Below, piece by piece: positions 4,605 through 27,289 of a stretch of DNA of 64,000 nucleotides. Each line of letters opens with the position of its first letter. The stretch's first letter is position 1. The DNA is taken from positions 23,235 through 87,234 of the forward strand of contig CAZVBZ010000004.1 in the NCBI GenBank assembly GCA_964626145.1, in the 5' to 3' direction. This DNA is from an uncultured Muribaculaceae bacterium. GTDB lineage: Bacteria > Cyanobacteriota > Vampirovibrionia > Gastranaerophilales > Gastranaerophilaceae. The notes below the pieces were generated by a model that ran no database searches, was not told where the DNA came from, and worked only from the letters and a program-made list of their open reading frames with translations. Position numbers and translations under genes: made by a program.

Positions 4605-4633
4605 TTGAAATCCCTATCAAATTTTGATAAAAT
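4605..4633 (+). promoter_or_regulatory. near-consensus sigma70-type promoter (TTGAAA-N17-TAAAAT) of pilin-like copy 1
   Basis: -35 TTGAAA at 4605-4610, 17-nt spacer, -10 TAAAAT at 4628-4633. The same architecture is upstream of copy 2. Confidence 0.55.
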
Positions 4634-4674
4634 GTAATAGTTAAAAGTACAAATGCAATAAAAAAGGATAGAAA

Positions 4675-5572
4675 ATGAAGTACGATAATTTTACTTTTAA
4701 AGACGCAAAAAACGTTTTTAGCTCGCTTTTAATGCCCCCCCCCCCCTACTGCCACAAGGGTTTCCAGGGTTTTAACTAAAAGCAAAAAACATGGTTGGAC
4801 TCTTGCAGAAACGTTAATTACTTTAACAATTATTGGAGTAATAGCTGCAATGACAGTGCCCAATTTAATGAGCAATTTTAGAAAATCGCAAACCGAGACA
4901 GGAATAAGGGTTGCTTATAAAATTTTAAACGATGCACTCAAAATGCCAATTGCTACAGAAGAAGCGCCTGATATGCCTACAATGATAATAGATTCACAAA
5001 CAGCCCCCGATATAACCGACGAATGGGACTCAATAATTAACCACTTTGCAACAAACTATCTCGTTCCATATTTAAAAGTTGCAAAGACATGTAAATCAGG
5101 AATAAGCACTGAAGATTGTGGTATACTGTATCCCAGCAAGCAAATTGATGGAAGCCCAACGCCACCAGATATGATGATGTATAATCCAAAGGACAAATAC
5201 AGAATTCAGCTCACAAATGGTATGCAAATTGGGGTTGGGAAGTACACGCCACAGGAGGGTGGTGACGGTTTTACTTTTTTAGTAGACATTAATGGTAAAA
5301 GCGGTCCAAATAGGCTAGCACACGACCAATTTTATTTTGCAATATCCGCAGCGACATGTAACACTACTAATCAATATTATTGCGACAAACATAATTTCAT
5401 ACAGGGGGGATTGCCTTATAGGAGTAGTACATCTAATAATATGTTTGATACCAGCATAAATCGGTGCATTAATAATATTGAATTCTGGGGTACTAAAGGG
5501 GCAGATTGTGCCGCGGTACTGCAACAAAACGGCTGGAAGATACCGGATAATTATCCGGTGAAAAAGTGGTAA
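4675..5572 (+). CDS. type IV pilin-like protein copy 1 (prepilin-type N-terminal cleavage/methylation domain); leader ORF and pilin body are out of frame by +1 at a poly-C tract
   Basis: RBS aaagga plus ATG at 4675 opens a leader (MKYDNFTFKDAKNVFSSLLMPPPP) that runs into C12 and stops at 4777-4779. The +1 frame continues ...TATRVSRVLTKSKKHG|WTLAETLITLTIIGVIAAMTVPNL..., a classic G|xxxxE prepilin site with a hydrophobic helix. The table ORF 4850..5572 begins inside that helix and so cannot be the true start. C-terminal GADCAAVLQQNGWKIPDNYPVKKW is shared with the paralogs. Confidence 0.75.
4735..4746 (+). repeat. homopolymeric C12 tract directly after ATG 4732
   Basis: Read directly from the sequence; 11 C (or 14) would place ATG 4675/4732 in frame with the prepilin body. 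Confidence 0.9.
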
Positions 5573-5658
5573 GCGTAAACATTTTTATACTTTTATAGAC
5601 AATGCTTTTTTTTACCTGTAAAATAAATAAGTAATAGATATAAGAGGAATGTGATTAT

Positions 5659-7032
5659 ATGTATAACGTTGCAATAGTTGGTGCCGGTCCTGCTGGTATT
5701 TTTGCTGCTTTAGAAATAACAAAGCTAAAACAAGACTGGAAAGTAATTTTAATTGAAAAAGGACAAAAGATTGAAAAAAGAAAATGCCTTTTAAGAGAAG
5801 GTTATGAAAAATGTCCAGGTTGCAAAAAATGCGGCTTGTTATGCGGCTGGGGCGGCGCTGGAGCGTTTTCTGATGGAAAACTGACTCTTACACCAGATGT
5901 TGGCGGACATTTGATAGATTATATGTCAAGAGAAAAAGTTGAAGATTTAATTGGTTATTCTGATAGTTTATATCTTAAATTTGGCGCAACTGATGAAGTA
6001 TTTGGTACAGATAAAAAAGTTTTTAGAGAAATTGAAAGAGAAGCGGCACTTGCTGAGCTTAAGCTCATTCATTCTCCAGTGAGACACCTCGGAACCGAAA
6101 GAAGTCTTGATGTTTTAAAAGGTATGCAAGATTATTTAAACGAAAAAATTACAATTTTAAATAATGTTGCCGCAGAACATCTTATCGTAGAATGCGAACA
6201 AGTAAAAGGTATTGTTCTTGATAATGGAGAAACAATTCGCGCAGAATATACTATAATTGCACCAGGGAGAGAAGGTGCTGACTGGCTTACAAAAGAATTT
6301 GACAAAAATAAAATAGGTTTTGTTAACAATGCTGTCGACGTAGGTGTAAGGGTTGAACTTCCTGCCCCTGTTTTTGAACCATTAACTTCAAAGCTTTATG
6401 AATCAAAACTTGTATATTATTCACCAACATTTGGAGACGAAGTAAGAACTTTTTGTATGAATCCAAATGGTGAAGTTGTTCAAGAAAATTACAACGGAAT
6501 TTCTACAGTAAACGGTCATAGTTATGCCGAAAAAACCACAAACAACACAAACTTTGCTCTTTTGGTAAGCAAAAAATTTACAGAACCGTTTAAAGAGCCT
6601 ATAGCTTACGGTCAACATGTTGCAAGTCTTGCAAACATGCTTGCCGGAGGTGTTCTTGTTCAAAGATTTGGTGATTTACTTGAAGGACGCCGCTCAACGC
6701 CGGAAAGAATTAAATCCAGCATAATAACTCCGACATTAACTTGCGCAACTCCTGGAGATTTAAGTCTTGTTATTCCATATAGACAAATGTTAAGCATAAT
6801 CGAAATGATTTACGCACTTGACAAAATTGCTCCTGGAACAGCTTCTAGATACACTCTGCTTTACGGTATAGAAGTTAAGTTCTATTCAGCAAGAGTTAAA
6901 CTTACAAACGAACTTGAAACAGAAGGTGTTAAAAATCTTTTTGCTATCGGTGACGGTGCAGGAGTAACGAGAGGATTAATTCAAGCCTCTGCGTCAGGTG
7001 TTCACGCTGCAAGAACAATTTGTTCAAGATAA
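5659..7032 (+). CDS. FAD-dependent oxidoreductase (COG2509-like) with a Cys cluster
   Basis: N-terminal GxGxxG (VAIVGAGPAGIFAA); CPGCKKCGLLCGWGG cysteine motif; second dinucleotide-binding motif near the C-terminus (AIGDGAG). Confidence 0.65.
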   Translation: MYNVAIVGAGPAGIFAALEITKLKQDWKVILIEKGQKIEKRKCLLREGYEKCPGCKKCGLLCGWGGAGAFSDGKLTLTPDVGGHLIDYMSREKVEDLIGYSDSLYLKFGATDEVFGTDKKVFREIEREAALAELKLIHSPVRHLGTERSLDVLKGMQDYLNEKITILNNVAAEHLIVECEQVKGIVLDNGETIRAEYTIIAPGREGADWLTKEFDKNKIGFVNNAVDVGVRVELPAPVFEPLTSKLYESKLVYYSPTFGDEVRTFCMNPNGEVVQENYNGISTVNGHSYAEKTTNNTNFALLVSKKFTEPFKEPIAYGQHVASLANMLAGGVLVQRFGDLLEGRRSTPERIKSSIITPTLTCATPGDLSLVIPYRQMLSIIEMIYALDKIAPGTASRYTLLYGIEVKFYSARVKLTNELETEGVKNLFAIGDGAGVTRGLIQASASGVHAARTICSR

Positions 7033-7051
7033 ATTTATAATAAAAAACAAA

Positions 7052-7082
7052 AACGGACGAAAATAAATTCGTCCGTTTTTTT
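7052..7082. terminator. bidirectional rho-independent terminator
   Basis: aacggacgaa/ttcgtccgtt hairpin followed by a T run; flanked by A runs. Sits between convergent genes. Confidence 0.7.
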
Positions 7083-7101
7083 ATGTTAAAGATTTATATT
7101 A

Positions 7102-7962
7102 TTAACCTTTAATTTGACCCATAACTTCTTCTGCAAAGTTTTCTTGTCTTTTTTCAAGACCTTCACCCAGCATAAATCTTGTAAATTCTTTTATTTCCAT
7201 TTTGCCAGAAATAAGTTGTTCTATAGTTTGGTTGGGATCTTTTACAAAAGGTTGTTCTAAAAGACATCTTTGAGCCATAAGTTTGTTAACACGACCTTCT
7301 ACAATTTTTGCTCTGATTTGTTCTGGTTTTTTAGCAAGGTCTTCTTTACCCATTTCAATTCTTGTTTCTTCTTCAATAACAGAAGCAGGAATTTCAGCTC
7401 TTGAAACAAATTCTGGAGCAGAAGAAGCAATGTGAAGGCAAATATCTTTAATCATTGTTTCTTCATTAGCAGAAGTGTTTAACAATACACCAATTTTTGA
7501 ATTGTGGATATAAGTACCAATATTTCCTTCATATCTAACAAATCTTCTTAAAGTAATTTTTTCACCAATTGTAGCAATTTTTTCTTTAATAAGTTCTTCA
7601 ACAGTTGAACCGCTTGAAGTTTTTGCTGAATTTAATTCTTCCAAAGATGCCGGATTTACATCTGCGGCAACTTTAGCAATTTCATTAGCAAGAGCTTTAA
7701 ATTCTTCATTTTTAGCAACAAAGTCTGTTTCGCAGTTTATTTCAACCATTGCACCTACTTTATCAGTAACATAAGAAGCAACAACTCCTTCTGCAGCAAT
7801 TCTGTTCATTTTTTTATCAGCTGAAGCAATACCTTTTTGTCTAAGATATTCCATAGCTTTTTCCATATCACCATTGTGTTCAACCAATGCTTTTTTAGCA
7901 TCCATAATGCCGGCACCGGTTTTTTCTCTAAGTTCTTTAACTTGAGCAGCACTAAATGTCAT
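7102..7962 (-). CDS. tsf: translation elongation factor Ts
   Basis: Strong family similarity (MTFSAAQVKELREKTGAGIMDAKKAL...) and conserved rpsB-tsf order. Confidence 0.95.
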   Translation of the reverse strand: MTFSAAQVKELREKTGAGIMDAKKALVEHNGDMEKAMEYLRQKGIASADKKMNRIAAEGVVASYVTDKVGAMVEINCETDFVAKNEEFKALANEIAKVAADVNPASLEELNSAKTSSGSTVEELIKEKIATIGEKITLRRFVRYEGNIGTYIHNSKIGVLLNTSANEETMIKDICLHIASSAPEFVSRAEIPASVIEEETRIEMGKEDLAKKPEQIRAKIVEGRVNKLMAQRCLLEQPFVKDPNQTIEQLISGKMEIKEFTRFMLGEGLEKRQENFAEEVMGQIKG

Positions 7963-8032
7963 TTTTCTATCTCCTTATTATTTTAAATAACGGAAAGCCC
8001 ATTCTAAAAGGGCTTTCCTAAATTATAAATTA

Positions 8033-8812
8033 TTAAACTTCTGCAGTTTCTTCTACAGTTTCTGTAACTCCAGCATCTTCTGCTTTAATAGTTTCTACTT
8101 TTGCAGAATTTTTAACTGCTTTTGCTTCTCTCAATTGTTTTCCTTCCAAAGCAGCGTCGGCTAATTTAGAAGAAATTAATTTAATTGAACGAATAGCATC
8201 GTCATTTCCTGGGATAACGTATTTAACTCCATCTGGGTTAGCGTTTGTATCAGCTAGACAAACAACTGGAATATTAAGTTTGTTAGCTTCTTGAATAGCA
8301 ATAAGTTCTTTTTGTTGGTCAACAACAAAAAGAATATCAGGCAAACCTCTCATTTCTTTAATACCGCCAAGAGACTTGCTCAATTTAGAAAGTTGTCTTG
8401 TAATTTGTGCAACTTCTTTTTTAGGTAATTTTTCTATATGTCCTGATTCAACAAAATCTTCTAATTCTCTGAGTTTATTAACTCGTGAACGAATTGTTTC
8501 AAAGTTAGTAAGCATACCGCCGAGCCATCTTTTGTTTATATAATAAACACCTGCTCTTTGAGCTTCTTCTTTAATTACATCTGTTGCTTGTTTTTTAGTA
8601 CCAACGAAAAGTATATTCTTTCCGCGAGCAGCAGCATCTCTAATTGCATCGCATGCTTCATCAAGCAGACCAACTGTTTTTCTTAAATCAATTACATAAA
8701 TTCCGTTTCTTGCTCCGAAAATATATTGTTTCATTTTCGGGTTCCAGCGTTGTGTTTGGTGTCCGAAGTGTACTCCGGCTTCTAAAAGTTCGATTAATGA
8801 TGCCTGTGGCAT
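8033..8812 (-). CDS. rpsB: 30S ribosomal protein S2
   Basis: [27 protein letters not shown]... is the canonical S2 N-terminus; adjacent to tsf. Confidence 0.95.
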
Positions 8813-8975
8813 GTTTTTCTCCTTGTTTTAACTAATACGCACAAGCTAAAAAGTACCATTTATACAAATTCGGGTTAAAATTTATACAAACTAAGCAAAA
8901 GCCTATCGTACACTTTCAACTTGTACAAATAGCATAATATAAACATGAAGAAATTTAAATAAAACTTAATTTTTC

Positions 8976-9476
8976 TTAAATATTTTTTATGTTAACAAAT
9001 TGATTTTCTCTTGAAATAGCAACTTTACCAGAACGCACTAACTCTTTTATGCCCATCGGTTTTAAAAGCTCAATAAGAGAATTAATTTGTCTTGAATCAC
9101 CAAAAGCCTGAATTGTATAGGTTTTATTTGTAACATCTATTATTTTTGCGTCAAAAATTTCAGCAATTCTCAATATTTCAGAGCGAGCCTCATCTTTTGC
9201 TGTAACTTTACACAAAATAAGTTCTCTTTCTATATAATCCAAAGAATTTAAATCAACAACTTTTAAAGTCGGAATTAACCTATTTAATTGTTTTGTAATT
9301 TGTTCAATAACAGAATCTTCACCATAAGTTATAACTGTCAAGCGAGAGTAATCGTTATCAAGCGTAGGTGCAACGGTAAGGCTTTCTATATTATAACCTC
9401 TACCTGAAAATAAATCCGAAACTCTTGACAAAACTCCTGATTCATTTCTTACTAAAACTGATATAGTATGTTTCAT
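8976..9476 (-). CDS. ACT-domain protein, acetolactate synthase small-subunit-like
   Basis: MKHTISVLVRNESGVLSRVSDLFSGRGYNIESLTV matches IlvH/IlvN ACT domains; no adjacent large subunit. Confidence 0.6.
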   Translation of the reverse strand: MKHTISVLVRNESGVLSRVSDLFSGRGYNIESLTVAPTLDNDYSRLTVITYGEDSVIEQITKQLNRLIPTLKVVDLNSLDYIERELILCKVTAKDEARSEILRIAEIFDAKIIDVTNKTYTIQAFGDSRQINSLIELLKPMGIKELVRSGKVAISRENQFVNIKNI

Positions 9477-9552
9477 TTCCAGTCCTCTATTTTAATTAAT
9501 TAATTTATATTGTATCATAAAAAAGTCTATTCATATAACAAGGTTTAAAATA

Positions 9553-10140
9553 ATGATAAAACTTGGTTTAACAGGAAATATTGCCGCAGGAAAATCAGAA
9601 GTTGAAAAAATATTCAAAAAACTAGGAATTCCAACAATATGCGCAGATTCAATAGTACATAATATTTTTAACAATAATGAAACTGTTAAAAAATCAATAG
9701 TAGAAACATTTAGCGGTTATGATGTATTGACAGAACAAAAATTAGACAGAAAAAAATTAGGTAAAATTGTTTTTTCTGACGCAAATTTAAAAAAGAAGTT
9801 AGAAAAAATTATTCACCCTATTGTTATTAAAGAAATTTTTAACTTTTTTAATAAAGAAAAAGATAAAAATGTAATTGTTGTAGATATTCCACTTTTGTTT
9901 GAAGGACATTTTGAATATTTATTTGACAAAATATTACTAGTTTACGCAAATGACAAAATACGTTTTGAAAGAATAAAAAAAAGAAACGGATTTAGTGACG
10001 AATATATAGAAAAAATTATGAAATCTCAAATGAATCAAGAAGAAAAGAAAAAATTATCTGATTTTGTTATAATCAATGAAAACCAAACACTTAATGATTT
10101 ACAAAAAGACGTTAAACATATTATAAAAGAACTAAAATGA
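9553..10140 (+). CDS. coaE: dephospho-CoA kinase
   Basis: P-loop GLTGNIAAGKSEV and CoaE family similarity. Confidence 0.85.
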   Translation: MIKLGLTGNIAAGKSEVEKIFKKLGIPTICADSIVHNIFNNNETVKKSIVETFSGYDVLTEQKLDRKKLGKIVFSDANLKKKLEKIIHPIVIKEIFNFFNKEKDKNVIVVDIPLLFEGHFEYLFDKILLVYANDKIRFERIKKRNGFSDEYIEKIMKSQMNQEEKKKLSDFVIINENQTLNDLQKDVKHIIKELK

Positions 10141-10424
10141 TACTAGAAAGTTTTTCAAAAATATTAAAAAGAACAAATTCTAAAAAATACATAAAACTAC
10201 TTACTTTATGGTTAAAAAAAAGAATATCTAAACCTGCAAAAACAAAAGTAGACAGAATTATTCAAAGTGAATGCTGGTTCGCTAAAAATAAATATGGAGA
10301 TTTTATAATAATTCCAAAATCACAAACAGGAAGAAATTTAACGCAATCTTTATATAATTATGTTAAAAGTGTCGAAAATGTAGATGTTTCAAGATTTTTG
10401 CACAACAATAATAAAATAAAATAA
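10137..10424 (+). CDS. hypothetical small basic protein
   Basis: 95-aa ORF overlapping the coaE stop (ATGA); no recognisable domain. Confidence 0.3.
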   Translation: MILESFSKILKRTNSKKYIKLLTLWLKKRISKPAKTKVDRIIQSECWFAKNKYGDFIIIPKSQTGRNLTQSLYNYVKSVENVDVSRFLHNNNKIK

Positions 10425-10709
10425 AAAAATATTTGTATTATTTTTTATGTAGATAACTTGTAGAAAAGTTTTATAAAACTGTCTTATTTTTAGTTAAAAT
10501 TTTGTATAAAAAATTTTTTATACAAAAAAATAATAACAAATTACAACTTTTATTACATTTATCTACAAATTCTTTACAATTTAAAACTCAATAATAACAA
10601 TACTTTTAGTAATTTATCTACATAAAATTTAATCTATTATTACTATTATTATTTTTATATATTATTATTAATATAAATAATCAATTAGAAATGCAGTTAA
10701 GGAGTAAAC
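10425..10709. promoter_or_regulatory. putative oriC / DnaA-box cluster upstream of dnaN
   Basis: ~285-bp, >80% AT intergenic region. It contains three perfect TTATCTACA 9-mers at 10448-10456 (inverted), 10559-10567 and 10614-10622. It also contains a perfect 26-bp palindrome TTTGTATAAAAAA|TTTTTTATACAAA at 10501-10526. Confidence 0.5.
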
Positions 10710-11831
10710 ATGATTTTTACAATAGAAAAAGAATCTTTGCTGAATAATTTAAGAATTGTTGAAAAAGCAAGTTTGTCAAAAGGTATTCAACCTGTTTTAT
10801 CAAATATTTTAATAGAAGCAAAAGATAACGAAGTACGTTTTTCGGCTACAGATTTAGATTTGTCAATTCAAGCTGCTACAACAGCAGTTGTTGAAACAGA
10901 TGGAGCAGTAACACTTCCTGCTAAAAAATTGAGCGACATTGTTTCAAGACTTCCCGAAAAACCAGTTGTTTTTAATATAGATTTAAATACTAATGTTGCA
11001 AGTATTACATGCGGTAATGCGAAATTTGAACTTGTCGGTATAGCAGCAAGTGAATTTCCAAACGTTGTTGATAAATCAATATTAGCGGATAAAGAATCTT
11101 TTGAAATAGAAGTAAAACCGTTTGTAAAAGGTATAAAACATACTGTTTATGCTGCAGCAAACTATGAAAATAGAAATATTATTAGTGGTGTTTTTTGTTC
11201 AATAGATTCAGAAAAACTAGAAATGGCTGCAACAGATGGAAATAGATTAACGAGAATTGTTGAAATTATTAAAAATGATGAACAAAAATCAAAATCTTTT
11301 GTTATTCCATCAAGAACACTTCAAGAAGTTTTGCGTATTGTATCGCTAGTTAACGATACTGTTTTAGAAATTTATGCAGATGTGTCAAGAATTATAGTTA
11401 AAACTAATTCGGTAATACTTTCTTCTAGACTTCTTGAGGGTGAATATCCTCCGTACAAACAGCTTATACCTACATCTTGTGCAAAAGAAGCAGTCGTAGC
11501 AAGAGAAGATTTAATAAATGCTTTGGAGCGAGTTTCTGTAATGGTAAATGAAAGAACAAATATTATTAAATTTACTTTTGCTAAAGAGTCATTGACTCTT
11601 AAAGCAGATACTCCTGAAACAGGCGCTTCAGAAGATGTTATTTCAATTGAATTTTCAGATAGTGAAGAACTTGTTATTGCTTTTAACTACAAATATGTGT
11701 TAGATTCATTAAAAATAATGGAAAGTAAAAATGTAAAAATAGGTTTGGGTGGCAGTTTGTCTGCTACAATATTTAAACCAGATTCAGAAGATGATTATCT
11801 GTGTTTAATAATGCCTATTCAGATAAGATAA
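10710..11831 (+). CDS. dnaN: DNA polymerase III beta sliding clamp
   Basis: Family similarity over the full length; RBS aaggag upstream. Confidence 0.9.
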   Translation: MIFTIEKESLLNNLRIVEKASLSKGIQPVLSNILIEAKDNEVRFSATDLDLSIQAATTAVVETDGAVTLPAKKLSDIVSRLPEKPVVFNIDLNTNVASITCGNAKFELVGIAASEFPNVVDKSILADKESFEIEVKPFVKGIKHTVYAAANYENRNIISGVFCSIDSEKLEMAATDGNRLTRIVEIIKNDEQKSKSFVIPSRTLQEVLRIVSLVNDTVLEIYADVSRIIVKTNSVILSSRLLEGEYPPYKQLIPTSCAKEAVVAREDLINALERVSVMVNERTNIIKFTFAKESLTLKADTPETGASEDVISIEFSDSEELVIAFNYKYVLDSLKIMESKNVKIGLGGSLSATIFKPDSEDDYLCLIMPIQIR

Positions 11832-11840
11832 GAGGTAAAA

Positions 11841-12773
11841 ATGAAAGTTACAGTAAAGGTTCCGGCTACAACAGCTAATTTAGGTCCGGGATTTGATTGT
11901 TTTGGTTTAGCATTGCCGATATATAACGAAGTTACTATAGAAGAAACCGTAATGCCTGGGACAGGAATTGAAATTTCAATTCTTTCTAATAATCAGGAAG
12001 AACTTGATATTATGTCTATTCCAACCGACAAAGAAAATATTGTTTATAAAGCAGTTGAGCTTTTATATAATTCTATAGGACAAGTTCCAAGTGAACTTAA
12101 AATTACAATAAAATCAGATATTCCTATAGCTAAAGGTTTGGGAAGTTCGGCATCTGTTATTGTTGGTGGACTCGTTGCTGCAAATGAACTTTTGGGGCAT
12201 CCAGCTGATGAAGCAGCTCTTTTGTCTATAGCAACAGAAGTTGAAGGTCATCCAGATAATGTAACACCTGCTATAGTTGGTGGTATGGTTATTTCTTCCC
12301 AAGAAGAAGATGGAAGTATTGTTTATAGAAAATTAGATTGGCCACAAGATTGGAAAATAATGGTTTGTGTACCTGATTACGAACTTCCTACTGATATAGC
12401 TCGTTCTGTTATTCCAAAAGAAGTTCCATTAAAAGACGCTTCTTTTAACTTAAGAAGAAGTGCTATGCTTGTACATGCTGTACATGAAGAAGATGAAGAT
12501 TTAATGAGGCTTGCTTTAACAGATAAACTTCATCAACCCTACAGAATGAAACTTGTACCAGGATTAAGTGAAATTATTGAAAATTTAAAACATGAACAAG
12601 ATGTTTTAGGATGTGTTTTGAGCGGTGCTGGTCCTTCTGTAATAGTTATAACCAAAGGAAATTCGCAAGAAAGAATAAAAGATATTGTAAAAAATACCTG
12701 GACTGATTTGAATGTAAAATCAGATATACAGGTTTTGAAAGTTGAAGAACAGGGCGCTGTTGTTTTAAATTAA
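11841..12773 (+). CDS. thrB: homoserine kinase
   Basis: GHMP kinase motifs (PATTANLGPGFD; KGLGSSAS). Confidence 0.85.
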   Translation: MKVTVKVPATTANLGPGFDCFGLALPIYNEVTIEETVMPGTGIEISILSNNQEELDIMSIPTDKENIVYKAVELLYNSIGQVPSELKITIKSDIPIAKGLGSSASVIVGGLVAANELLGHPADEAALLSIATEVEGHPDNVTPAIVGGMVISSQEEDGSIVYRKLDWPQDWKIMVCVPDYELPTDIARSVIPKEVPLKDASFNLRRSAMLVHAVHEEDEDLMRLALTDKLHQPYRMKLVPGLSEIIENLKHEQDVLGCVLSGAGPSVIVITKGNSQERIKDIVKNTWTDLNVKSDIQVLKVEEQGAVVLN

Positions 12774-12774
12774 T

Positions 12775-13461
12775 ATGGGTAAATTCTTTAATTATAACGT
12801 AAATACTGGCTTATACAATATGTCTTTTGATGAAAAAATGCTTAATGATTGTATAACTAGTGAGGATAAAGAGCCTGTTTTGAGATTATATGGGTGGAGT
12901 CCGGCATGTGTTTCTCTTGGTAGAAATCAAAGAGATACAATAGATTATGAAGTTTGTAATCAAAATAATATTGATGTTGTAAGAAGAATTACTGGTGGGA
13001 GAGCACTTCTTCATGACAAAGAACTTACTTATTCTTTCGTTTGTCCTGTAAATTTTTTACAGTCTGGTGAAAGTGTTATTAAGTCGTATAAAGAAATTTC
13101 TCAGGCTTTGATTTTTGGGATGAATGAACTTGGTATAAATGTTGATTTTCCAGAAGAAAAGAAAATAAAAACAACTGCAAATTATTGTATGTCACTTTCT
13201 ACTGGCGCAGATTTAAGTTATAAAGGTAAAAAAATTATAGGTTCTGCGCAAGTTCGAAAATCAGGTTATATTTTGCAGCATGGTTCAATTCTTATTGATG
13301 TAGATTTTAATCTTATTAAAAAGTTATTTCACGAATCTGCTAAAATCCATGAAATAACTTTTGTAAAGGAGATAAATAGTAGTTTAAAAATTGATGATTT
13401 GATTTTCTATATCAAAAGAGGATTTGAAAAGAAATTTAATCAAACTTTTTTTAGTTTATAA
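12775..13461 (+). CDS. lipoate-protein ligase / octanoyltransferase family protein (BPL_LPL catalytic domain)
   Basis: RRITGGRALLHDKELTYSF resembles the LplA-family motif RRxxGGxAVxHD; 228 aa, catalytic domain only. Confidence 0.6.
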   Translation: MGKFFNYNVNTGLYNMSFDEKMLNDCITSEDKEPVLRLYGWSPACVSLGRNQRDTIDYEVCNQNNIDVVRRITGGRALLHDKELTYSFVCPVNFLQSGESVIKSYKEISQALIFGMNELGINVDFPEEKKIKTTANYCMSLSTGADLSYKGKKIIGSAQVRKSGYILQHGSILIDVDFNLIKKLFHESAKIHEITFVKEINSSLKIDDLIFYIKRGFEKKFNQTFFSL

Positions 13462-13629
13462 TGGATAAACTAAAAAATCTTTCTCTGACATAGCTGCAGT
13501 GCATTCGAGTGCTTTTTCAAGAAATGCTTCAATAGCTTTTTCTATAGTTTTAACTTCTTTTCTTAGCATTCTGTAATCTTTTTCTTTGCTTTTGTTTAGT
13601 GCTTGTTTAAAATTTTCGTAGTTTTTCAT
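13456..13629 (-). CDS. hypothetical 57-aa helical protein (below the ORF-table size cut-off)
   Basis: Translates to MKNYENFKQALNKSKEKDYRMLRKEVKTIEKAIEAFLEKALECTAAMSEKDFLVYPL; found by manual translation. Confidence 0.25.
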   Translation of the reverse strand: MKNYENFKQALNKSKEKDYRMLRKEVKTIEKAIEAFLEKALECTAAMSEKDFLVYPL

Positions 13630-13790
13630 CACACATACCCTTTTTTTAATAACCTACATTTTATTTATCGGCATTTTTATTTAATAACTTTAATAAATGT
13701 GAAAAAAAAGTTACAAAACAAAACAATACTATTTATCAGTGTGTTTTCAAAAAAATATTTATACTAAAATATAATTAAGGAGCGGAAAAG

Positions 13791-15098
13791 ATGAAGAGTA
13801 AAAGACTCACCCTTTATATTTTTATAGCTTTGATACTTGGCGTATTAGTTGGTGGATTTTACCCTGAAATAGGTGTAAAAACACAGTTTTTAGCGACTGT
13901 TTTTTTAAACATGATTAAAATGATTATTGCTCCTTTGTTATTTGCAACGCTTGTTATTGGTATTGCAGGTCATGGTGATGTTAAACATTTAGGAAAAATA
14001 GGCATAAAAACTATTTTTTACTTTGAAGTTGTTACTACTATTGCGCTTTTTATAGGTCTTGCAGCTGGTCATATTTTTCAGCCTGGTAAAGGTTTTGTGA
14101 TAGATATAAGTAATGCCCAGATGAATATGGTTCAAGCTATGGCTGATTCACACCATCATGAAACAATTTCTGAAATGCTTATAACAATGGTGCCGACAAG
14201 TATTGTAGATGCAATGGCAACTGGTAATCTTTTGCAAATTGTTGTTTTTGCAATATTTTTTGCTTTAGCAATTTGTGCAATAAAAGAGAAGGCAAAACCA
14301 TTTTTATCTATACTAACTTCTTTGTCAGATATTATGTTTAAATTTACAGAACTTGTTATGTGGTTTGCACCAATAGGTATTTTCGGTGCAATAGCCTCTA
14401 CTGTAGCGCATAACGGTTTCCAAATTCTTGGTAATTATGCAAAAATAATATTTGCACTTTATGCTGCACTTATAATTTTTGTTTTTTGTGTATTAATTAT
14501 AGTTTGCAAGATATGTAAAGTTCCGTTTAGAGGAATATTAAGAGCAATATCAGAACCTGCGCTGCTTGCTTTTTCAACAGCAAGTTCAGAGGCAGCTTTG
14601 CCTAAAGCTATGGAAATAATGGAAAAATTTGGTGTTCCTAAAAATATAGTTGGTTTTGTTATGCCTACAGGTTATACTTTTAATTTAGATGGAAGTACAT
14701 TGTATTTGGCTTTGGGTGTTTTGTTTTCAACTCAAATTGTTGGCATAGATTTGTCATTACAACAGCAAATTTTTATAATGATAGCTTTGATGCTTACTTC
14801 TAAAGGTATTGCTGGAATTCCAAGAGTTGCTCTGGTTGTTATGGCTGGTACTCTTTCTTCCTTTGGATATCCGATTATAGGTGTTGCTATTTTGCTTGGA
14901 ATTGACCAAATTTTAGACATGGGGCGTACTACAGTTAATTTGATTGGTAATTGTGTAGCTACGGTTGTTATAGCAAAATGGGAAAAAGATTTTGATTATG
15001 ATAAAATGGAAAATTTTATAAATAGTGAAAAAAAGAAAAAAGCGCTTATAAAAAGATTTAGAGCCAGAAATGATGAAAAAAAAGTAATTCAGGCATAA
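13791..15098 (+). CDS. dicarboxylate/amino acid:cation symporter (DAACS, GltP-like)
   Basis: Multi-pass membrane protein with DAACS family similarity; RBS aaggag. Confidence 0.85.
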   Translation: MKSKRLTLYIFIALILGVLVGGFYPEIGVKTQFLATVFLNMIKMIIAPLLFATLVIGIAGHGDVKHLGKIGIKTIFYFEVVTTIALFIGLAAGHIFQPGKGFVIDISNAQMNMVQAMADSHHHETISEMLITMVPTSIVDAMATGNLLQIVVFAIFFALAICAIKEKAKPFLSILTSLSDIMFKFTELVMWFAPIGIFGAIASTVAHNGFQILGNYAKIIFALYAALIIFVFCVLIIVCKICKVPFRGILRAISEPALLAFSTASSEAALPKAMEIMEKFGVPKNIVGFVMPTGYTFNLDGSTLYLALGVLFSTQIVGIDLSLQQQIFIMIALMLTSKGIAGIPRVALVVMAGTLSSFGYPIIGVAILLGIDQILDMGRTTVNLIGNCVATVVIAKWEKDFDYDKMENFINSEKKKKALIKRFRARNDEKKVIQA

Positions 15099-15165
15099 TT
15101 TATTATTCTTTTGTCTATAATAAATTTTCTTCTCGCATGTAATAAATAAAAATAAAGGAGAAGAA

Positions 15166-16179
15166 ATGAAAAACATAGTTTTTTTTAATATAGATAATGA
15201 TGATAAAATTTTTTTTGAAAAAGAATTTGGAAAAGCTTTTAATTTAAAATTTTTTAAGCATTCTTTAGAAGATTTTGTACATATTACAGAAGATATTAAA
15301 AATGCTAATGTTATTTCATGTTTTACAACTTCTGAACTTAGTTCAAAAATATTAGAAAAATTTTCTAATTTGGAAATGATTGCTCTGCGTTGTGTTGGCT
15401 TTAATAATGTTGATATAGAATATTGTAAAAAAAATAATATAAAAGTTTTAAACTCAAAAGGTTATGGTAATAGAACAGTTGCGGAATTTACGTTTGGTTT
15501 AATTTTTGATGTTTCAAGATATGTTTCTAAATCTTACCTCGATTTGGTAGATAATAGTAAGCAAAAAAGTAATTATACTGGAATAGAAATAAAAGGAAAA
15601 ACAATTGGAATTATAGGACTAGGTGCAATAGGTTCTGAGGTAGCAAAAATAGCTCACAATTTGCAAATGAATGTTCTAGGCTATGATATTTATGAGAATG
15701 AAAATTTAAAAGAAAATTACAACGTTAAATATGTTTCTTTAGATAAATTGCTTTCAGAGTCTGATTTTATATCAATACATGCTCCACTTACAAAAGAAAA
15801 CTATCATCTTATAGATGAAAAAAAATTTGCACTAATGAAAGAAACAGCAATTGTAATAAATACAGCAAGAGGTGAAATTATTGATACAAATGCATTATAC
15901 AAAGCTCTTTCATTTGGTACTATTAAAGGTGCGGGGCTTGATGTGCTTGAATGCGAAGATGTTACAAATGATAAAAATTTTAAATTTGACATGGATTATC
16001 TTGACAAAAAGTCTATAAAACAAATATTATTAAACCACGAGATTACTAAACTCGATAATGCAATAGTTACACCTCATATTGCTTATGATACAGAAGAAGC
16101 TAAAGAAAGAATAAGACAAATTACAACAAAAAATATATATTCTTTTTTTGCTGGAAATATTCAAAATAACGTTTATTAA
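15166..16179 (+). CDS. D-isomer-specific 2-hydroxyacid dehydrogenase (NAD-binding)
   Basis: GxGxxG (GIIGLGAIGSEVA) and the catalytic R/E/H pattern of this family. Confidence 0.8.
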   Translation: MKNIVFFNIDNDDKIFFEKEFGKAFNLKFFKHSLEDFVHITEDIKNANVISCFTTSELSSKILEKFSNLEMIALRCVGFNNVDIEYCKKNNIKVLNSKGYGNRTVAEFTFGLIFDVSRYVSKSYLDLVDNSKQKSNYTGIEIKGKTIGIIGLGAIGSEVAKIAHNLQMNVLGYDIYENENLKENYNVKYVSLDKLLSESDFISIHAPLTKENYHLIDEKKFALMKETAIVINTARGEIIDTNALYKALSFGTIKGAGLDVLECEDVTNDKNFKFDMDYLDKKSIKQILLNHEITKLDNAIVTPHIAYDTEEAKERIRQITTKNIYSFFAGNIQNNVY

Positions 16180-17127
16180 ATGACTTTACTCCAAATTGAA
16201 AAATTAAATTTAGGCTTTAACCTGTCCAGTGGCTTTAAACAGGTTATTTATGATGTTTCACTTTCTGTAGAAAAAGGGCAAATGCTTGCTATAGTTGGTG
16301 AATCTGGATGTGGAAAAACTCTAACAGCTATGAGTATTTTAAATCTTCTGCCAAAGAATGCAGAAATAAAATCAGGTCAAATTTTATTTAACAATGAAAA
16401 TTTACTCCAAAAAACAGATTTTCAAATGCAAAAAATTAGAGGAAAAAATATTGCACTTATTCCTCAAGACCCTATGACAGCGTTAAATCCTTTATATACT
16501 ATAGAAAATCAACTTTTAGAAGTTATTAAACTTCATCAACCTGATGAAAAAAATCCTCAACAAATAGCTTTAAAAGCTTTAGAAGACGTAAAAATTCCAA
16601 ATGCATTTGAACGATTAAAATCTTATCCGCATGAACTTTCTGGAGGAATGAAACAACGTATTATTATTGCAATGGCACTTGCATGCAAAGCTGATTTAAT
16701 AATAGCTGATGAGCCGACAACTGCATTAGACGTAACAGTTCAATCTCAAATAATGATACTTTTAAATCAAATAAAAGAAACAAGAAATACAGCGATTATA
16801 TTGATTACACATGATTTAGGACTTGTTGCAGAAAATGCAGATTTTGTGGCTGTTATGTATGCTGGTAATATTGTTGAATATGCACCAAAAAACGTGTTAT
16901 TTAAAAATCCGCTTCATCCTTATACAAAAGCATTATTTATGGCTTTACCGGATATGAATAGTGAAAAGCTAATTCCAATTGATGGTCATCCACCATCAAT
17001 TGATGAAACAATTTATGGTTGTCAGTTTCATCCGCGATGTAAATGTAAAAAGGAAATTTGTTTTCAAAAAAAACCTCTGGTAATTAAAAAAGAAAACTCT
17101 TTTGTTTCTTGTTGGCTTTATAAATAA
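16180..17127 (+). CDS. ABC transporter ATP-binding protein (OppD/DppD-type, orphan)
   Basis: Walker A GESGCGKT, signature LSGGMKQR, Walker B IIADEPT, oligopeptide-type C-terminal tail. No permease or binding-protein gene nearby. Confidence 0.8.
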   Translation: MTLLQIEKLNLGFNLSSGFKQVIYDVSLSVEKGQMLAIVGESGCGKTLTAMSILNLLPKNAEIKSGQILFNNENLLQKTDFQMQKIRGKNIALIPQDPMTALNPLYTIENQLLEVIKLHQPDEKNPQQIALKALEDVKIPNAFERLKSYPHELSGGMKQRIIIAMALACKADLIIADEPTTALDVTVQSQIMILLNQIKETRNTAIILITHDLGLVAENADFVAVMYAGNIVEYAPKNVLFKNPLHPYTKALFMALPDMNSEKLIPIDGHPPSIDETIYGCQFHPRCKCKKEICFQKKPLVIKKENSFVSCWLYK

Positions 17128-17191
17128 ATAATTTAATCCGGCATAATTTTTGTGTTATAATTTGTTCAAAACATAATGCGGGAGTTTAAAC

Positions 17192-18634
17192 ATGAGTGAA
17201 TTAAGAGATAAATATGAAGTTGTTATAGGACTAGAAGTTCACGCACAACTTAAAACTAAGTCAAAAATATTTGCACCAGACGGAACAGAATTTGGTAAAG
17301 AACAAAATACACAAATTAGTCCTATTACTTTAGGTATGCCTGGAGTTTTGCCTGTTTTAAATAAAGAATGTGTTAATATGGGTATTATTTTGGGGCTTGC
17401 TCTTAATTGTGAAATTCCAGAAAGATGTAAGTTTGATAGAAAACAGTATTTTTACGCTGATTTACCAAAAGGTTATCAAATATCACAATACGATGAACCT
17501 ATATGCATAAATGGTTATATTGATGTTAAAGGTAAAAGAATTGGCATAACTAGAGCACACTTGGAAGAAGATGCTGGAAAACTCGTTCATGCAGGTGCAG
17601 ATGGACTTGCTGGGTCAAATTATTCTTTGGTTGACTTAAATAGAGCAGGTACGCCACTTTTGGAAATAGTTTCCGAACCAGATATGAGAAGTTCTGAAGA
17701 AGCAAAAGATTATATGGAAGAACTTAGAAATATAGTTAGATATCTTGGTGTTTGCGATGGAAACCTTGATGAAGGTTCAATGCGTTGCGATGCAAATATT
17801 TCCATCATGCCAAAAGGTTCAAAAGAATTTGGTACTCGTGCAGAAATTAAAAACGTAAACTCATTTAGAGCACTCCAAAGAGCTATAGAATACGAAATTG
17901 ATAGACAAATAGAATTAGTTGAATCGGGTGAAAAAGTTGTTCAAGAAACTCGTCTTTGGGATGACAATCAAGGCGTTACAAAGTCAATGCGTGGTAAAGA
18001 AGATGCACATGATTACAGATATTTCCCGGAACCAGATTTAATGCCTTTAGAAATCTCACGTGAATGGGTTGAAAATATCCGTAAGTCTATGCCAGAATTA
18101 CCTGCTCAAAAACGAAAAAAATATGAAGAAGCCGGTCTAAGTGCCTATGATGCAAATGTTATTGTAGACCAAATGGAAACAGCCCTTTTCTACGATAAAG
18201 TTTTGAAATTGGGTGCAAATGCAAGAATAGCTTCTAATTTCCTTATGGGTGAAATTACAGCTTACCTAAAAGAAGAACACTTAACTATTGATAAAACAAA
18301 AATTACACCAGAAAGTCTTACAAAATTAATTGAATTGATTGAAAAAGGAACAATTTCAAATAATATTGCAAAAACCCTTGTTATGACTCTTGTAAAAGAA
18401 GGTGGAAACCCCGAAGAAATAGTTGAAAAACAAGGATTAGGCGTTATTTCTGATGAAGGCGCAATTAAAGAAATATGTAAAAAAGTTGTTGACTCCAACC
18501 CAAATCAAGTTGCTGCTTATAAAGGCGGAAAACAGCAATTGTTTGGATTTTTTGTTGGACAAGTGATGAAAGAAACTAAAGGACGAGCAAATCCTCAAAC
18601 AGTAAATACAATTTTAAAAGAGTTATTAAGTTAA
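17192..18634 (+). CDS. gatB: Asp-tRNA(Asn)/Glu-tRNA(Gln) amidotransferase subunit B
   Basis: Full-length GatB similarity (YEVVIGLEVHAQL...). Confidence 0.9.
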   Translation: MSELRDKYEVVIGLEVHAQLKTKSKIFAPDGTEFGKEQNTQISPITLGMPGVLPVLNKECVNMGIILGLALNCEIPERCKFDRKQYFYADLPKGYQISQYDEPICINGYIDVKGKRIGITRAHLEEDAGKLVHAGADGLAGSNYSLVDLNRAGTPLLEIVSEPDMRSSEEAKDYMEELRNIVRYLGVCDGNLDEGSMRCDANISIMPKGSKEFGTRAEIKNVNSFRALQRAIEYEIDRQIELVESGEKVVQETRLWDDNQGVTKSMRGKEDAHDYRYFPEPDLMPLEISREWVENIRKSMPELPAQKRKKYEEAGLSAYDANVIVDQMETALFYDKVLKLGANARIASNFLMGEITAYLKEEHLTIDKTKITPESLTKLIELIEKGTISNNIAKTLVMTLVKEGGNPEEIVEKQGLGVISDEGAIKEICKKVVDSNPNQVAAYKGGKQQLFGFFVGQVMKETKGRANPQTVNTILKELLS

Positions 18635-18701
18635 AAAATAAATTTTACTTAGTTACGCAACTGTAATGACTTTTATTTGTAAATTGCTCATAATTGCTAT
18701 T

Positions 18702-18935
18702 ATGAAATATAATAACATGGGTAAATTTATAAGAAGAAAACGCATTGAGCAAGGTATTTCTCTTAATGAATGTGCATTAAATGCAACAGTTGAAGGAGCA
18801 ACACTTTGTCGTGTTGAAACAAAACCGCAAGATATTAAAGTTTGCTGGTTGGCTAAAATTGCTGCAGTTTTTGGCATGACACTGTCCGAATTCATTAAAG
18901 AATACGAAAATTCTCAATGGGCAAAAGAAGAATAA
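18702..18935 (+). CDS. small HTH (XRE-like) DNA-binding protein, paralog A
   Basis: MKYNNMGKFIRRKRIEQGISLNECALNA... Start placed at the Met aligned with paralog B (MQYVNVGKFIRRKR); the table ORF begins at 18666. Confidence 0.5.
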   Translation: MKYNNMGKFIRRKRIEQGISLNECALNATVEGATLCRVETKPQDIKVCWLAKIAAVFGMTLSEFIKEYENSQWAKEE

Positions 18936-18948
18936 ATTTAAGTTAAAA

Positions 18949-20034
18949 TTAAGCTTCTATTTGTGCAAGTTTTTCAAGTTTAAGCTTTTGGTCATGTTCG
19001 ACTAAAAGTCCTATAAGGTCGTCTAATTCTCCGTCAATTACTGTCCAAACGTTTAAGTTTTGTCCAATTCTATGGTCTGTAAGACGTCCTTGCGGGAAAT
19101 TATATGTTCTTATGCGTTCTGAACGGTCACCAGTACCAACTTGTGAGCGCCTAAGGTCAGTAATTTCTTGCATTTGTTTTTGAACTTCTAAATCATATAA
19201 TTTTGCTTTAAGAATTTGAAGTGCACGTTCTTTGTTTTGAAGTTGCGAGCGTTCTTCAGTACAAAAAACCATTAATCCGGTTGGTTTGTGAACAACACGA
19301 ACAGCTGTTTCAACTTTGTTAACGTTTTGTCCCCCAGCCCCTCCCGAACGGCATGTTGAAATTTCTAAATCAACTGGATTTATATCTATTTCAACATCAT
19401 CAACTTCGGGCATAACGGCAACAGTTGCGGTTGACGTATGAACTCGTCCTTGGCTTTCTGTCTCGGGAACACGTTGAACACGGTGGACGCCGGATTCATA
19501 TTTAAGCTGGGAGTAAATGCTATCACCTTTCATAGAAATAACAACTTCTGAAACGCCGCCAGCCTCACAATCATTTATTGATAAAATTTGAGTTGACCAA
19601 CCTTTTTTGTCCGCATAACGCATGTACATTCTCATTAAATCGCCAGCAAATATGTTTGCTTCATCTCCGCCAGCTCCGCCACGAATTTCAAGCATAATAT
19701 CTTTGTCATCCATTGGGTCACGAGGAAGGAGAAGAACTTTCATTCTTTCTGAGTATTCTTCGATTTTTTTCTCGTTTTCTTCAATTTCTGCTTTCAAAAA
19801 ACCTTTCATTTCTTCATCTTTTTCTGTTTTCAAAAGTTCTTGAGCGTCTTTTATGGCTTCGTCAGCATTTTTAAAAGCGTGGTAAACTTCTACCGTTTCT
19901 TCCATAGCTTTTCTTTGTTTTGAAAGGTCTCGAAATTTATTGTAATCTTGTGCTGTAGCAGGGTCTGACAAAATTAACCCAAGTTCATTATATTTTGTTT
20001 CTATTTGTAATATTTTATCAAGCATGTCTTTCAT
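18949..20034 (-). CDS. prfA: peptide chain release factor 1
   Basis: RF1 family with GGQ motif ([11 protein letters not shown]). Start trimmed to the Met with RBS aaagga (MKDMLDKIL...), because the table start at 20112 would overlap thyX by 65 nt. Confidence 0.9.
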
Positions 20035-20047
20035 TGATTTTTTCCTT

Positions 20048-20746
20048 TTAAATATCTCTTGTAGCCATTCTACCACAAGATTTGTCTTCGTCACAGAAAC
20101 CGAGTCTTTCACATTTTGGAACGAGATATGGTTTTAACCAAGGTTCTTGTTCTGTTAGGGCATTACACATTAACCGAACAAGAAGTCTTATTTCATCTTG
20201 CGCTCGTGTGCAAAGTCTTATATTTGCGAGGTGAATCATTTCTCTTAGATTTAGGCTAGCAACCATAGAGGAAGCAGCCGCGTTTGGAAGAATAAATCTT
20301 GCATCTTCTGCGGGAATTCCGTTTTCTGTCATTTCTGTGTAAAAATCGGCAACTTTTTTCATAAATTCATCGTATTTTTCTTTTAATTCAGAATTTTTTT
20401 GAATAGTTGGAGGAGTAAGATAATCAAATTGTCCTTTTTCTTTAACATATCTTTGAGATTTTTGAGAAAAAGACATGTGGCGGTGTCTAACAAGCTGGTG
20501 AGTACAAGCGCGTGACACATTTGAAATAGCAAAAGATACCTGAATATGTTCTATTGTTGAATAATGTCCAGATGAAATAACCCTTGATATGAGCTTTAAC
20601 ATTTTTTCTTCATCTTCGGCTTTATCATAAATATTAATCGGCGAATCGGCGCTGTAACAAGTGCGGCATGCCGTGTAAATTGTGCGTAGCATGTTGTCCG
20701 GTTTAGATATTAATTGTACTACTGGTTTATTTGAAAATTCAGACAT
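20048..20746 (-). CDS. thyX: FAD-dependent thymidylate synthase
   Basis: ThyX signature [14 protein letters not shown]. Confidence 0.9.
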
Positions 20747-20830
20747 AATTTTTCCTCCATAATAAAATTATTGCCCGATTTGAGTAAAAAGGGCAATAAT
20801 TTACCAAAAAATTCACAAAATAGCTCAAAA

Positions 20831-21031
20831 CTATTTCTTTTCGTATCTTTTTTTGAATCTTTCAACACGTCCTTCTGTATCCATAATTCTTTGGTTACCG
20901 GTGTAGAACGGATGGCATTTGTTGCAAATTTCAACAGTGATGTTATCAAGAACAGAGCCTGTTTCAATTTCGTTACCGCAAACGCACTTAATTTTCATTT
21001 TTTTATAATCTGGATGAATTCCTTCTTTCAT
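20831..21031 (-). CDS. rpmE: 50S ribosomal protein L31
   Basis: [11 protein letters not shown]...CxxC...CHPFYTG; start trimmed from the table ORF (21100) to the conserved Met. Confidence 0.85.
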
Positions 21032-21118
21032 TATTTTGTTCCTTTCGTAAAATGGTTGTAAAACATTATAGTCATGTAAATTTTTATTATCAAGTGTCAT
21101 GATAAAGATTGTAAAAAA

Positions 21119-22273: not shown

Positions 22274-22381
22274 ATAAATATTTTATATCAAAAATTTATT
22301 CAATTATTTGTTGAGTTGCAATATATTTTAATACAGATAAAATATAATTATCTGAATTTGTATTGATGGTAAAATTATTAT

Positions 22382-24565: not shown

Positions 24566-25073
24566 ATCAAATATTTTTATTGAAAATATTTATCCTGATT
24601 TTGAAATCGATGATAAAAAAGTCCTTTTGGGAACAAAAAAAATTCTCAAATATTTTCTTGAAAATAAATATATTTTTGAAAATAGTTGTTTGAGTGAAGA
24701 AAAGTTTAAAACGGTATCTTTTGACATTGTTTTTTGTAATAATGACAAAATTCATGAAATAAACCGAGAATATCGCCAAAAAGACCGCCCTACTGATGTA
24801 ATAACGTTTGCCCTTTTTGCCGATAGTTTACCAGAAGAAAGATTTGTTTTTGATGAAGAAATAAATCTTGGTGAAATTATTATTTCTTTGGATAAAACAT
24901 TTGAACAATCAAAAGATAAAAATCATTCATTTGGCGAAGAATTGTTTTTCTTAATTTCACATGGCATAATGCATTTGTTGGGATATGATCATCAAACCGA
25001 AAGCGAATTAGAGTTTATGCTTGACCAACAAGGTAAGTCAATGGAGAAGGTTAATGTCAAAATACGCACATAA
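24558..25073 (+). CDS. ybeY: rRNA maturation endoribonuclease YbeY
   Basis: HGIMHLLGYDH zinc-binding motif. Confidence 0.9.
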   Translation: MIKSNIFIENIYPDFEIDDKKVLLGTKKILKYFLENKYIFENSCLSEEKFKTVSFDIVFCNNDKIHEINREYRQKDRPTDVITFALFADSLPEERFVFDEEINLGEIIISLDKTFEQSKDKNHSFGEELFFLISHGIMHLLGYDHQTESELEFMLDQQGKSMEKVNVKIRT

Positions 25074-25425: not shown

Positions 25426-25521
25426 TCCTTAAAAAAACATTAAGAAGATTGGTTAATGGCTATGCTTGGGCTATAATAAATGATAGGCATTACACCTGTT
25501 TTATAATAAGAGGTATTTGTT

Positions 25522-26118: not shown

Positions 26119-26135
26119 GAACAACGGAAGAAAAA

Positions 26136-27266: not shown

Positions 27267-27289
27267 TCTGAATGGATTGAGGAGAAAAG

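Follow-up and report, generated by a model that had tools for sequence, protein, structure and literature searches.

In Helicobacter pylori, the bab genes are dispersed paralogs that are homologous at both the 5' and the 3' end but diverge in between (PMC4552749). Their reading frame is set by a CT dinucleotide repeat ~56 base pairs (bp) after the ATG, and gene conversion ~60-240 bp from the start produces chimeras in which the switch has been moved onto another body (PMC4552749). Here, a comparable arrangement is described for two pilin-like genes, copy 1 and copy 2, that lie in inverted orientation on a 64,000-nucleotide (nt) stretch of Gastranaerophilales DNA (contig CAZVBZ010000004.1; hereafter the window). 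Both genes carry a poly-C tract whose length sets the reading frame, and a 249-bp 5' module that includes the tract is near-identical between them. We propose that the genes are dispersed, phase-variable type IV pilin-like paralogs whose 5' module was homogenised by recent gene conversion, a reading to which we give a probability of roughly 0.78.

Among the described systems, the bab family (babA/babB/babC) appears to be the closest match in logic. The geometry, the scale and the consequence of 5' conversion are alike. The bab products are outer-membrane adhesins with a Sec signal and their switch is a dinucleotide repeat, whereas the repeat here is a homopolymer and, set against bab, every copy seen has its tract. 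Switching and conversion have been demonstrated experimentally for bab, whereas here they are inferred from sequence. The opa genes of Neisseria, ~11 dispersed copies with their own promoters, carry a CTCTT repeat in the sequence coding for the leader peptide (PMC3745409). A repeat in the leader-peptide coding sequence of many dispersed copies is a likeness to the present genes, although the opa repeat is a pentamer and the opa products are beta-barrel outer-membrane proteins, whereas a homopolymer and pilin-like products are found here. The opa genes also have a conserved framework around variable regions and recombine between loci. The tract of Neisseria pilC is within the part of the gene that codes for the signal peptide. 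Fimbriae of Bordetella are included among phase-variable structures (PMC3745409). As in pilC and Bordetella fim, a homopolymeric G or C tract would here control a pilus- or fimbria-related gene. Unlike the present genes, pilC encodes a tip adhesin or assembly factor and not a pilin, and the C-stretch of Bordetella fim acts in the promoter, on transcription, whereas the tract here lies ~100 nt 3' of the -10 box, inside an open reading frame (ORF).

The shared 5' module

Each of the two genes is organised as a self-contained expression unit. Ahead of the ATG come a predicted sigma-70-type promoter and a ribosome-binding site; after it come a leader of ~36-40 amino acids with the poly-C tract in its middle, the motif G/WTLAE (the slash marks the predicted cleavage site), the alpha-1 helix, a globular domain that varies and a C-terminal motif that is conserved. 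Because the tract lies inside the part expected to be cleaved off, changes of 3 nt would be harmless, and other changes in tract length would turn translation of the body on or off by slipped-strand phase variation.

A repeat search of the window returned inverted arms at 4740-5105 and 33695-34060 (366 nt, 92% identity, spacing 28,589 nt) and a second inverted pair at 4687-4743 and 34054-34110 (57 nt, 95%). The two genes were aligned with MAFFT and the alignment was cut into segments, given here in copy 1 coordinates. Far upstream, the copies are 43% identical. The promoter (4604-4634) is 81% identical, with CTTGAAAT and TTTTGATAAAAT as the sole common stretches, and identity is 45% in the 5' untranslated region with its ribosome-binding site (4635-4674) and 42% over the start codon and the four codons after it (4675-4686). 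The pre-tract leader (4687-4734) is 96% identical. The tract reads 12 C in copy 1 and CA plus 7 C in copy 2, a length difference of 3 nt, and 4747-4934 is 100% identical. After the identical block, successive segments of the body are 82%, 69%, 88%, 54% and 84% identical, and past the stop codon identity is 38%.

The longest perfect run (4740-4938) covers 199 nt. Inside the module, the copies differ by a single-nucleotide polymorphism (SNP) at 4706, the 3-nt indel of the tract and a C/A at 4739. On the 3' side, the first mismatch is a synonymous C/G at 4939, and this edge of identity (4938/4939) falls at the end of the alpha-1 helix in the AlphaFold model. A run of this length lies far outside chance expectation: when the differences were permuted 20,000 times, the longest run obtained was 78, and counted at third codon positions alone the observed run of 63 compares with at most 37 after permutation.

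A sequence-only reading of this DNA had described an inverted module of ~330 bp with the promoter inside it, the same TTGAAA-N17-TAAAAT architecture at both copies, bodies ~70% identical and identical ends. The inverted near-identity is real, but it extends over only 249 bp (4690-4938) and the promoter lies outside it, with only the boxes in common. The shared architecture was called at both copies, each with an upstream TG, and the bodies are 74% identical in DNA over 4939-5572. The identity of the ends holds for the 5' end; the 3' end is 84% identical in DNA and conserved at the protein level only, where the family motif NGWKIPDxYPVKK is kept.

Synonymous and non-synonymous differences between copy 1 and copy 2 were counted by the Nei-Gojobori method. 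The 63 codons that follow the tract show no difference at either their 43.7 synonymous or their 145.3 non-synonymous sites. In the other 204 codons, the proportion of differing synonymous sites (pS) is 0.52, which corresponds to a synonymous divergence (dS) of 0.88, and the proportion of differing non-synonymous sites (pN) is 0.18; the dS of the body exceeds 1 in some 30-codon windows. Thus ~23 synonymous differences would be expected in the block, and none was observed. Because the synonymous sites of the block have been homogenised while the rest of the gene is near saturation, the identity would be explained by recent conversion. Selection on the protein is not enough, since synonymous differences have been erased in the block as well. 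Plain purifying selection, which had been held out as the alternative, fails for this reason, with synonymous sites saturating elsewhere and free to vary in copy 3, a third family member at the end of the window. The whole gene might instead have been duplicated recently, with the body alone then diverging fast under diversifying selection; the high pN of the body and the exposed globular domain that the bodies encode would suit this. Such a history is extremely unlikely because protein selection cannot create the contrast between a body dS of 0.88, above 1 in places, and zero in the block.

The module might instead be held identical by selection at the nucleotide level, acting on a regulatory RNA leader, a protein-binding site or the target of a recombinase or invertase. 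The sharp end of the block would suit such an element, the promoter boxes and leader are also conserved among paralogs of other genomes, and some other subfamilies have a conserved palindrome between tract and start codon. Where copy 3 overlaps the module, however, 6 of 55 nt differ from copy 1, all of them synonymous, and a nucleotide-level constraint is made unlikely by this variation at synonymous sites of the same stretch. The in-frame leaders of relatives also vary in sequence. A structured RNA was rejected: there is no match to any Rfam family, and the predicted fold of 4641-4810 is not more stable than shuffled sequences (z = +1.2). Site-specific inversion of the Piv or shufflon type was rejected as well, as no recombinase gene was found next to copy 1 or copy 2; the flanking genes encode a NAGPA glycosidase, a flavin adenine dinucleotide (FAD) protein, rpsT and Gate-domain proteins. 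Nucleotide-level selection is regarded as quite unlikely.

In the pilE/pilS system, Moraxella Piv and the R64 shufflon, pilin diversity arises from recombination at conserved 5' pilin sequence. Piv and the shufflon have an adjacent dedicated recombinase and short specific sites, and no recombinase lies nearby here. The pilE/pilS system has one expression locus and silent promoterless copies, whereas both full copies here have their own promoter-like site, ribosome-binding site and ATG. The idea of an antigenically variable family maintained by gene conversion is sustained as regards conversion, not as regards a family of the pilE/pilS kind, each copy having its own promoter, start and tract.

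A mosaic relative is seen at the protein level. P0002, a protein encoded on another NCBI contig (12,273 bp), agrees with copy 2 over 165 amino acids at every one of the 38 informative residues, and its C-terminal third switches to partly copy-1-like and partly unique sequence. P0002 would constitute protein-level evidence of mosaicism in the family, and gene conversion or recombination among the paralogs appears well supported.

The remaining explanation of the identity would be recent gene conversion, in which about 200-250 bp were transferred non-reciprocally, with the 5' edge either at the tract or near 4690. The near-identity of 249 bp (199 bp perfect) would be the footprint of recent homologous recombination between the copies; it spans the tract and the sequence coding for the post-tract leader and for alpha-1, and it stops at the end of the helix. 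Selection on the leader and alpha-1 at the peptide level would keep enough homology to seed recombination, which would then remove synonymous differences. Conversion or crossover 3' of the tract would pair a given promoter-plus-tract state with another variable body. The family may be better described as independently phase-variable paralogs whose 5' switch modules recombine.

Several points weigh against recent conversion. The comparison involves two full sequences from one genome, and the direction, the age and the non-reciprocity of the transfer are matters of inference. The identity of the leader and alpha-1 is partly owed to strong selection on the peptide. P0002, P0014 and other database relatives could come from the same genome or from a relative, and the mosaicism is seen at the protein level only. 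For copies 1 and 2, one tract length is known per locus, from a single assembly; homopolymer lengths are error-prone, and the OFF state of both copies may be unreal. A metagenome assembler could in principle homogenise a repeat.

This last point can be put as a full alternative, in which a short-read metagenome assembler collapsed or consensus-polished two repeats and thereby produced a false identity and unreliable tract lengths. The source looks like an 87-kb metagenome-assembled contig, and repeats and homopolymers are known weak points of metagenome assemblies. However, both copies are crossed within one contig with unique flanks on each side, a SNP and a tract difference survive inside the module, and the identity ends with the alpha-1 helix and not at a k-mer-like length. 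The same N-terminal protein sequence is also present in P0002, on another contig. An artefact of assembly is considered unlikely.

Reading frames and family-wide tracts

In both full copies, the sequence shows an ATG preceded by a ribosome-binding site and a promoter-like site (Table 1); in copy 1 the ribosome-binding site is AAGGA, ~6 nt 5' of the ATG. Within the 5' coding sequence of each, ahead of the predicted cleavage site, there is a long homopolymer whose length sets the frame. As assembled, the ATG of copy 1 at 4675 opens an ORF of 34 codons. The pilin frame of copy 1 opens straight after a TAA at 4730-4732 and encodes, in order, the post-tract leader PPPPTATRVSRVLTKSKKHG, G/WTLAE, the alpha-1 helix, the variable globular domain and the C-terminal NGWKIPDNYPVKKW; it has no start codon, and copy 2 is arranged likewise. 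Both copies are frameshifted at the poly-C tract, a point that the sequence-only reading had missed, and one C fewer restores the long ORF. In silico, copy 1 gives 298 amino acids with C11, 299 with C14 and 34 with C12 as assembled, and copy 2 gives 291 with C6, 292 with C9 and 33 with C7 as assembled. Both copies would thus be OFF as assembled, each with one C in excess.

Table 1. Coordinates of the pilin-like genes and associated features in the window
Feature	Position	Strand	Remarks
Copy 1, whole gene	4675-5572	+	
Copy 1 promoter-like site	4605..4633	+	TTGAAA-17-TAAAAT, upstream TG (extended -10)
Copy 1 leader ORF as assembled	4675..4779	+	MKYDNFTFKDAKNVFSSLLMPPPPYCHKGFQGFN, then stop; out of frame with pilin body
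Copy 1 poly-C tract	4735..4746	+	12 C; encodes poly-Pro part of leader; putative frame-setting switch
Copy 1 pilin-frame ORF	4733..5572	+	no start codon in frame
Near-identical 5' module, copy 1 arm	4690..4938	+	249 nt
Interval that a module crossover would invert	5573..33245		
Bidirectional terminator-like hairpin	33207..33240		between copy 2 and rpsT
Copy 2, whole gene	34122-33246	-	
Copy 2 pilin-frame ORF	33246..34064	-	
Near-identical 5' module, copy 2 arm	33862..34107	-	perfect run 33862-34060
Copy 2 leader ORF as assembled	34020..34122	-	MHTKKFTFKDVKNVFSSLLMHPPYCHKGFQGFN, then stop; out of frame with body
Copy 2 tract	34054..34062	-	CACCCCCCC; interrupted poly-C, 7 contiguous C
Copy 2 promoter-like site	34165..34193	-	TTGAAA-17-TAAAAT, upstream TG
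Copy 3, different subfamily	63389..64000	-	cut by window end

In-frame homologues exist. P0014 and P0025 begin MxxxNFTFKDAKNVFSSLLIAPPPTATRVSRFLTKxKKHG/[WF]TLAE, and P0016, P0056 and P0084 begin MPPPPT[AL][TA]RVS. A related pre-tract leader, M-x-[FY]-[DQ]-x-[YF]-[IT]-[VF], is found in L038, P0029, P0113, P0125 and P0140, in some of which the tract has decayed. Because in-frame homologues exist, the leader is taken to be translated and conserved as a peptide. It would be a long extension of the signal peptide, with the tract in its disposable middle. A word-indexed protein search with the reconstructed 88-amino-acid leader returned just two candidates and nothing usable. The public gene calls for copies 1 and 2 (P0001 and P0003) begin at an internal Met (MTVPNL...; ATGs at window positions 4850 and 33950); the true start is hidden by the frameshift, and the signal peptide is therefore absent from the called proteins. 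P0002 also starts at an internal Met, and its 5' end is probably out of frame too. The product of copy 3 is not in the protein collection, though it is encoded on the same contig as copies 1 and 2.

Relatives were collected by an alignment-based scan of species-representative genomes, which returned >580, and the best 80 (L001-L080) were examined. Across these 80 loci and the window (903 kb), 54 G or C homopolymers of at least 8 nt were counted; 36 of the 54 have a pilin cleavage motif within 200 nt on their 3' side, and for the majority of the other 18 such a motif follows at 250-450 nt. In the window itself, the only two G/C runs of at least 7 nt are those of copies 1 and 2. G/C tracts are over-represented at these pilin-like genes. 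The common layout is a promoter, AAGGAG, an ATG, 8-20 codons, G9-11 or C10-12, a further 6-45 codons and [GA]/FTLAE.

An alternative reading of the frame break is programmed +1 frameshifting or transcriptional slippage on the poly-proline tract, with the module as a recoding signal. The same +1 shift is needed by both copies, and CCC_C and poly-Pro stalls are +1-prone contexts. The frames of the related genes that have no internal start, on the other hand, are undirected: ~5 are ON, ~7 have one extra nucleotide and ~9 have two, so that ~7 alleles would need +1 and ~9 would need -1. This mix looks like randomly sampled switch states and speaks against a programmed shift in one direction. The same behaviour is seen for poly-G tracts, whose product is poly-Gly, and the same leader has in-frame alleles. 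In the SUTW01 genome, the G10 paralogs are in frame and the G11 paralogs out of frame. A programmed frameshift is judged very unlikely.

Upstream modules of 150 nt have a median identity of 0.73 (maximum 0.95) within a genome and 0.58 (maximum 0.71) between genomes. For the N-terminal coding region, the values are 0.73 within and 0.67 between, a smaller gap than for the upstream module. The higher within-genome likeness of the switch module fits concerted evolution or recent expansion. The placing of the tracts and the mixed frames suggest a lineage-wide set of phase-variable pilin-like genes. A literature search found nothing relevant on DUF6613, or on phase variation, homopolymeric tracts or pilins in Melainabacteria/Gastranaerophilales. 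What is new is thus the lineage and the gene family in which a familiar type of mechanism is seen.

Other arrangements were seen among the related loci. Between tract and pilin start, L009 (~3840-3870 and ~8650-8680), L037, L072 and L080 have a conserved element, TATAATAGTGATATGAAATATCAC. Within it are the palindrome GTGATAT...ATATCAC and an internal ATG, from which a canonical short leader, MKYHNKRFG/FTLAE, can be read. In the subfamilies with this element, the target of the tract may be an upstream ORF, or transcription, and not the pilin frame. In L038, ~60 nt 5' of position 7950, a paralog has a double homopolymer in its leader, C12 followed directly by A10, and it has almost the same promoter and untranslated region as its neighbour at 6069. 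On the minus strand of L037, 5' of 8736, a G10 tract is preceded by two overlapping ATGs that are in different frames (AATGTATGAAAAG), so that a start codon could serve two of the three phases of the tract.

The encoded proteins and their relatives

Judged by motif and profile, copies 1 and 2 appear to be type IV pilin-like proteins with a class III signal peptide and to belong to the DUF6613 family. Their pilin-frame ORFs read PPPPTATRVSRVLTKSKKHG/WTLAETLITLTIIGVIAAMTVPNL, a variable middle, and CAAVLQQNGWKIPD followed by [ND]YPVKK[WF]. The class III signal peptide motif (Gly at -1, Glu at +5, hydrophobic alpha-1) is present as KKHG/WTLAETLITLTIIGVIAA. TIGR02532 scores 17.2 against a cutoff of 16.3, and GspG and ComG N-termini are also matched; Pfam N_methyl scores 18.1, under its cutoff of 21.2. 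In a direct scan, Pfam DUF6613 (PF20318) scores 18.3 and 18.0 bits, under its cutoff of 24.3, and PF20318 is present in the database's precomputed annotation of P0001, P0003 and nearly all homologues. The C-terminal NGWKIPDDYPVKKF motif of DUF6613 is found in both copies. In a search of the PDB, a profile of the family matched the alpha-1 helix in GspG and in type IV pilins of known structure. The AlphaFold (AF2) model shows an N-terminal helix of 50 residues and then beta-sheet (predicted local distance difference test 83.6, predicted template-modelling score 0.82), and a Foldseek search of the PDB gave no meaningful match. No prepilin peptidase, pilus assembly or type II secretion assembly genes were found within the 64-kb window.

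A six-frame profile search found exactly three family members in the window, the third being copy 3. Copy 3, P0014, P0016, P0054 and P0055 make up a second subfamily with the common N-terminus LTQKWKKQERISQLQVAYSILQNA, after which identity is ~52-54%. This subfamily appears to repeat the same design, a common N-terminus and a divergent remainder. Almost all of the best 80 of the >580 relatives belong to metagenome-assembled genomes (MAGs) of Gastranaerophilales/Melainabacteria, and none is >34% identical. The flanking housekeeping genes match the same Gastranaerophilales/Melainabacteria MAGs best (FtsH, for example, at 72%). Exact peptide words from copy 1 found no relatives among genome contigs, and back-translated leader and alpha-1 patterns gave zero matches in metagenome contigs.

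The interval between the copies

The interval between copy 1 and copy 2 holds tsf, rpsB, ilvN, coaE, dnaN, thrB, gatB, prfA, thyX, ybeY, grpE, dnaJ, nupC, rpsT and other genes. The region 10140-10710, 5' of dnaN (10710-11831), is intergenic, has a guanine-plus-cytosine (GC) content of 22% and coincides with the minimum of the cumulative GC skew. Three DnaA-box-like sites, TTATCTACA, are located in it at 10448, 10559 and 10614. This region is a candidate oriC inside the interval, flanked by copy 1 on one side and copy 2 on the other. A perfect match of 199 bp is amply long for recombination of the RecA type. By geometry, a reciprocal crossover between the inverted modules would invert the 28.5-kb interval; such an inversion is plausible and should be tolerated because the interval probably contains oriC. 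A crossover 3' of the tract would exchange promoter-plus-tract between both bodies. The GC skew has no inversion footprint at the copies; its sign changes at ~9.5-10 kb, at the putative origin.

An inverted gene pair around an origin is also known from Salmonella, in which tufA and tufB lie on either side of the origin and evolve in concert by homologous recombination (PMC6735719; PMC5485169). Up to ~50% of these recombination events invert the interval (PMC6735719; PMC5485169). The inverted pair with an origin, here a putative one, between its copies is a likeness to the present genes. In tuf, however, whole genes are homogenised under strong selection for an identical product and the interval is 761 kb, whereas here ~250 bp are homogenised and the bodies diverge.

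In distant genomes, paralogs adjoin homologues of genes that also neighbour copies 1 and 2 here: NAGPA (L041, L003), Gate1/Gate2 (L047), a TrhP-like gene (L030) and ftsH (L019). The orientations of those neighbour pairs differ from the ones here, which makes them uninformative on a crossover between copies 1 and 2. They suggest long-lived insertion neighbourhoods with local rearrangement. The window also has a 177-nt inverted repeat of 70% identity, at 18756-18932 and 53830-54006, formed by two small paralogous ORFs. One of these (53812-54096, minus strand) encodes an XRE-type helix-turn-helix protein.

A wider reading is offered tentatively, as possible and still doubtful: promoter, leader and tract may be a portable switch cassette that is exchanged among dozens of paralogs in gut Gastranaerophilales, with the inverted pair of this genome flipping the 28.5-kb origin segment back and forth within the population. 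If so, ON/OFF state and variable body would be combined combinatorially, and a large undescribed 'phasome' with recombinational shuffling would exist in an uncultured, host-associated sister lineage of Cyanobacteria. The specific finding is more modest. The identity would be a conversion footprint of a well-known kind, and no new mechanism is called for. It does provide a handle, as tract lengths and junction counts are testable in existing metagenomic reads. The Melainabacteria/Gastranaerophilales are uncultured gut residents whose interactions with host and phage are essentially unknown. In their pilin-like genes, frame-setting G/C tracts in a disposable leader, and switch-bearing 5' ends that would recombine between paralogs, point to stochastic surface variation in this lineage, a hallmark of lifestyles under pressure from hosts or phages.

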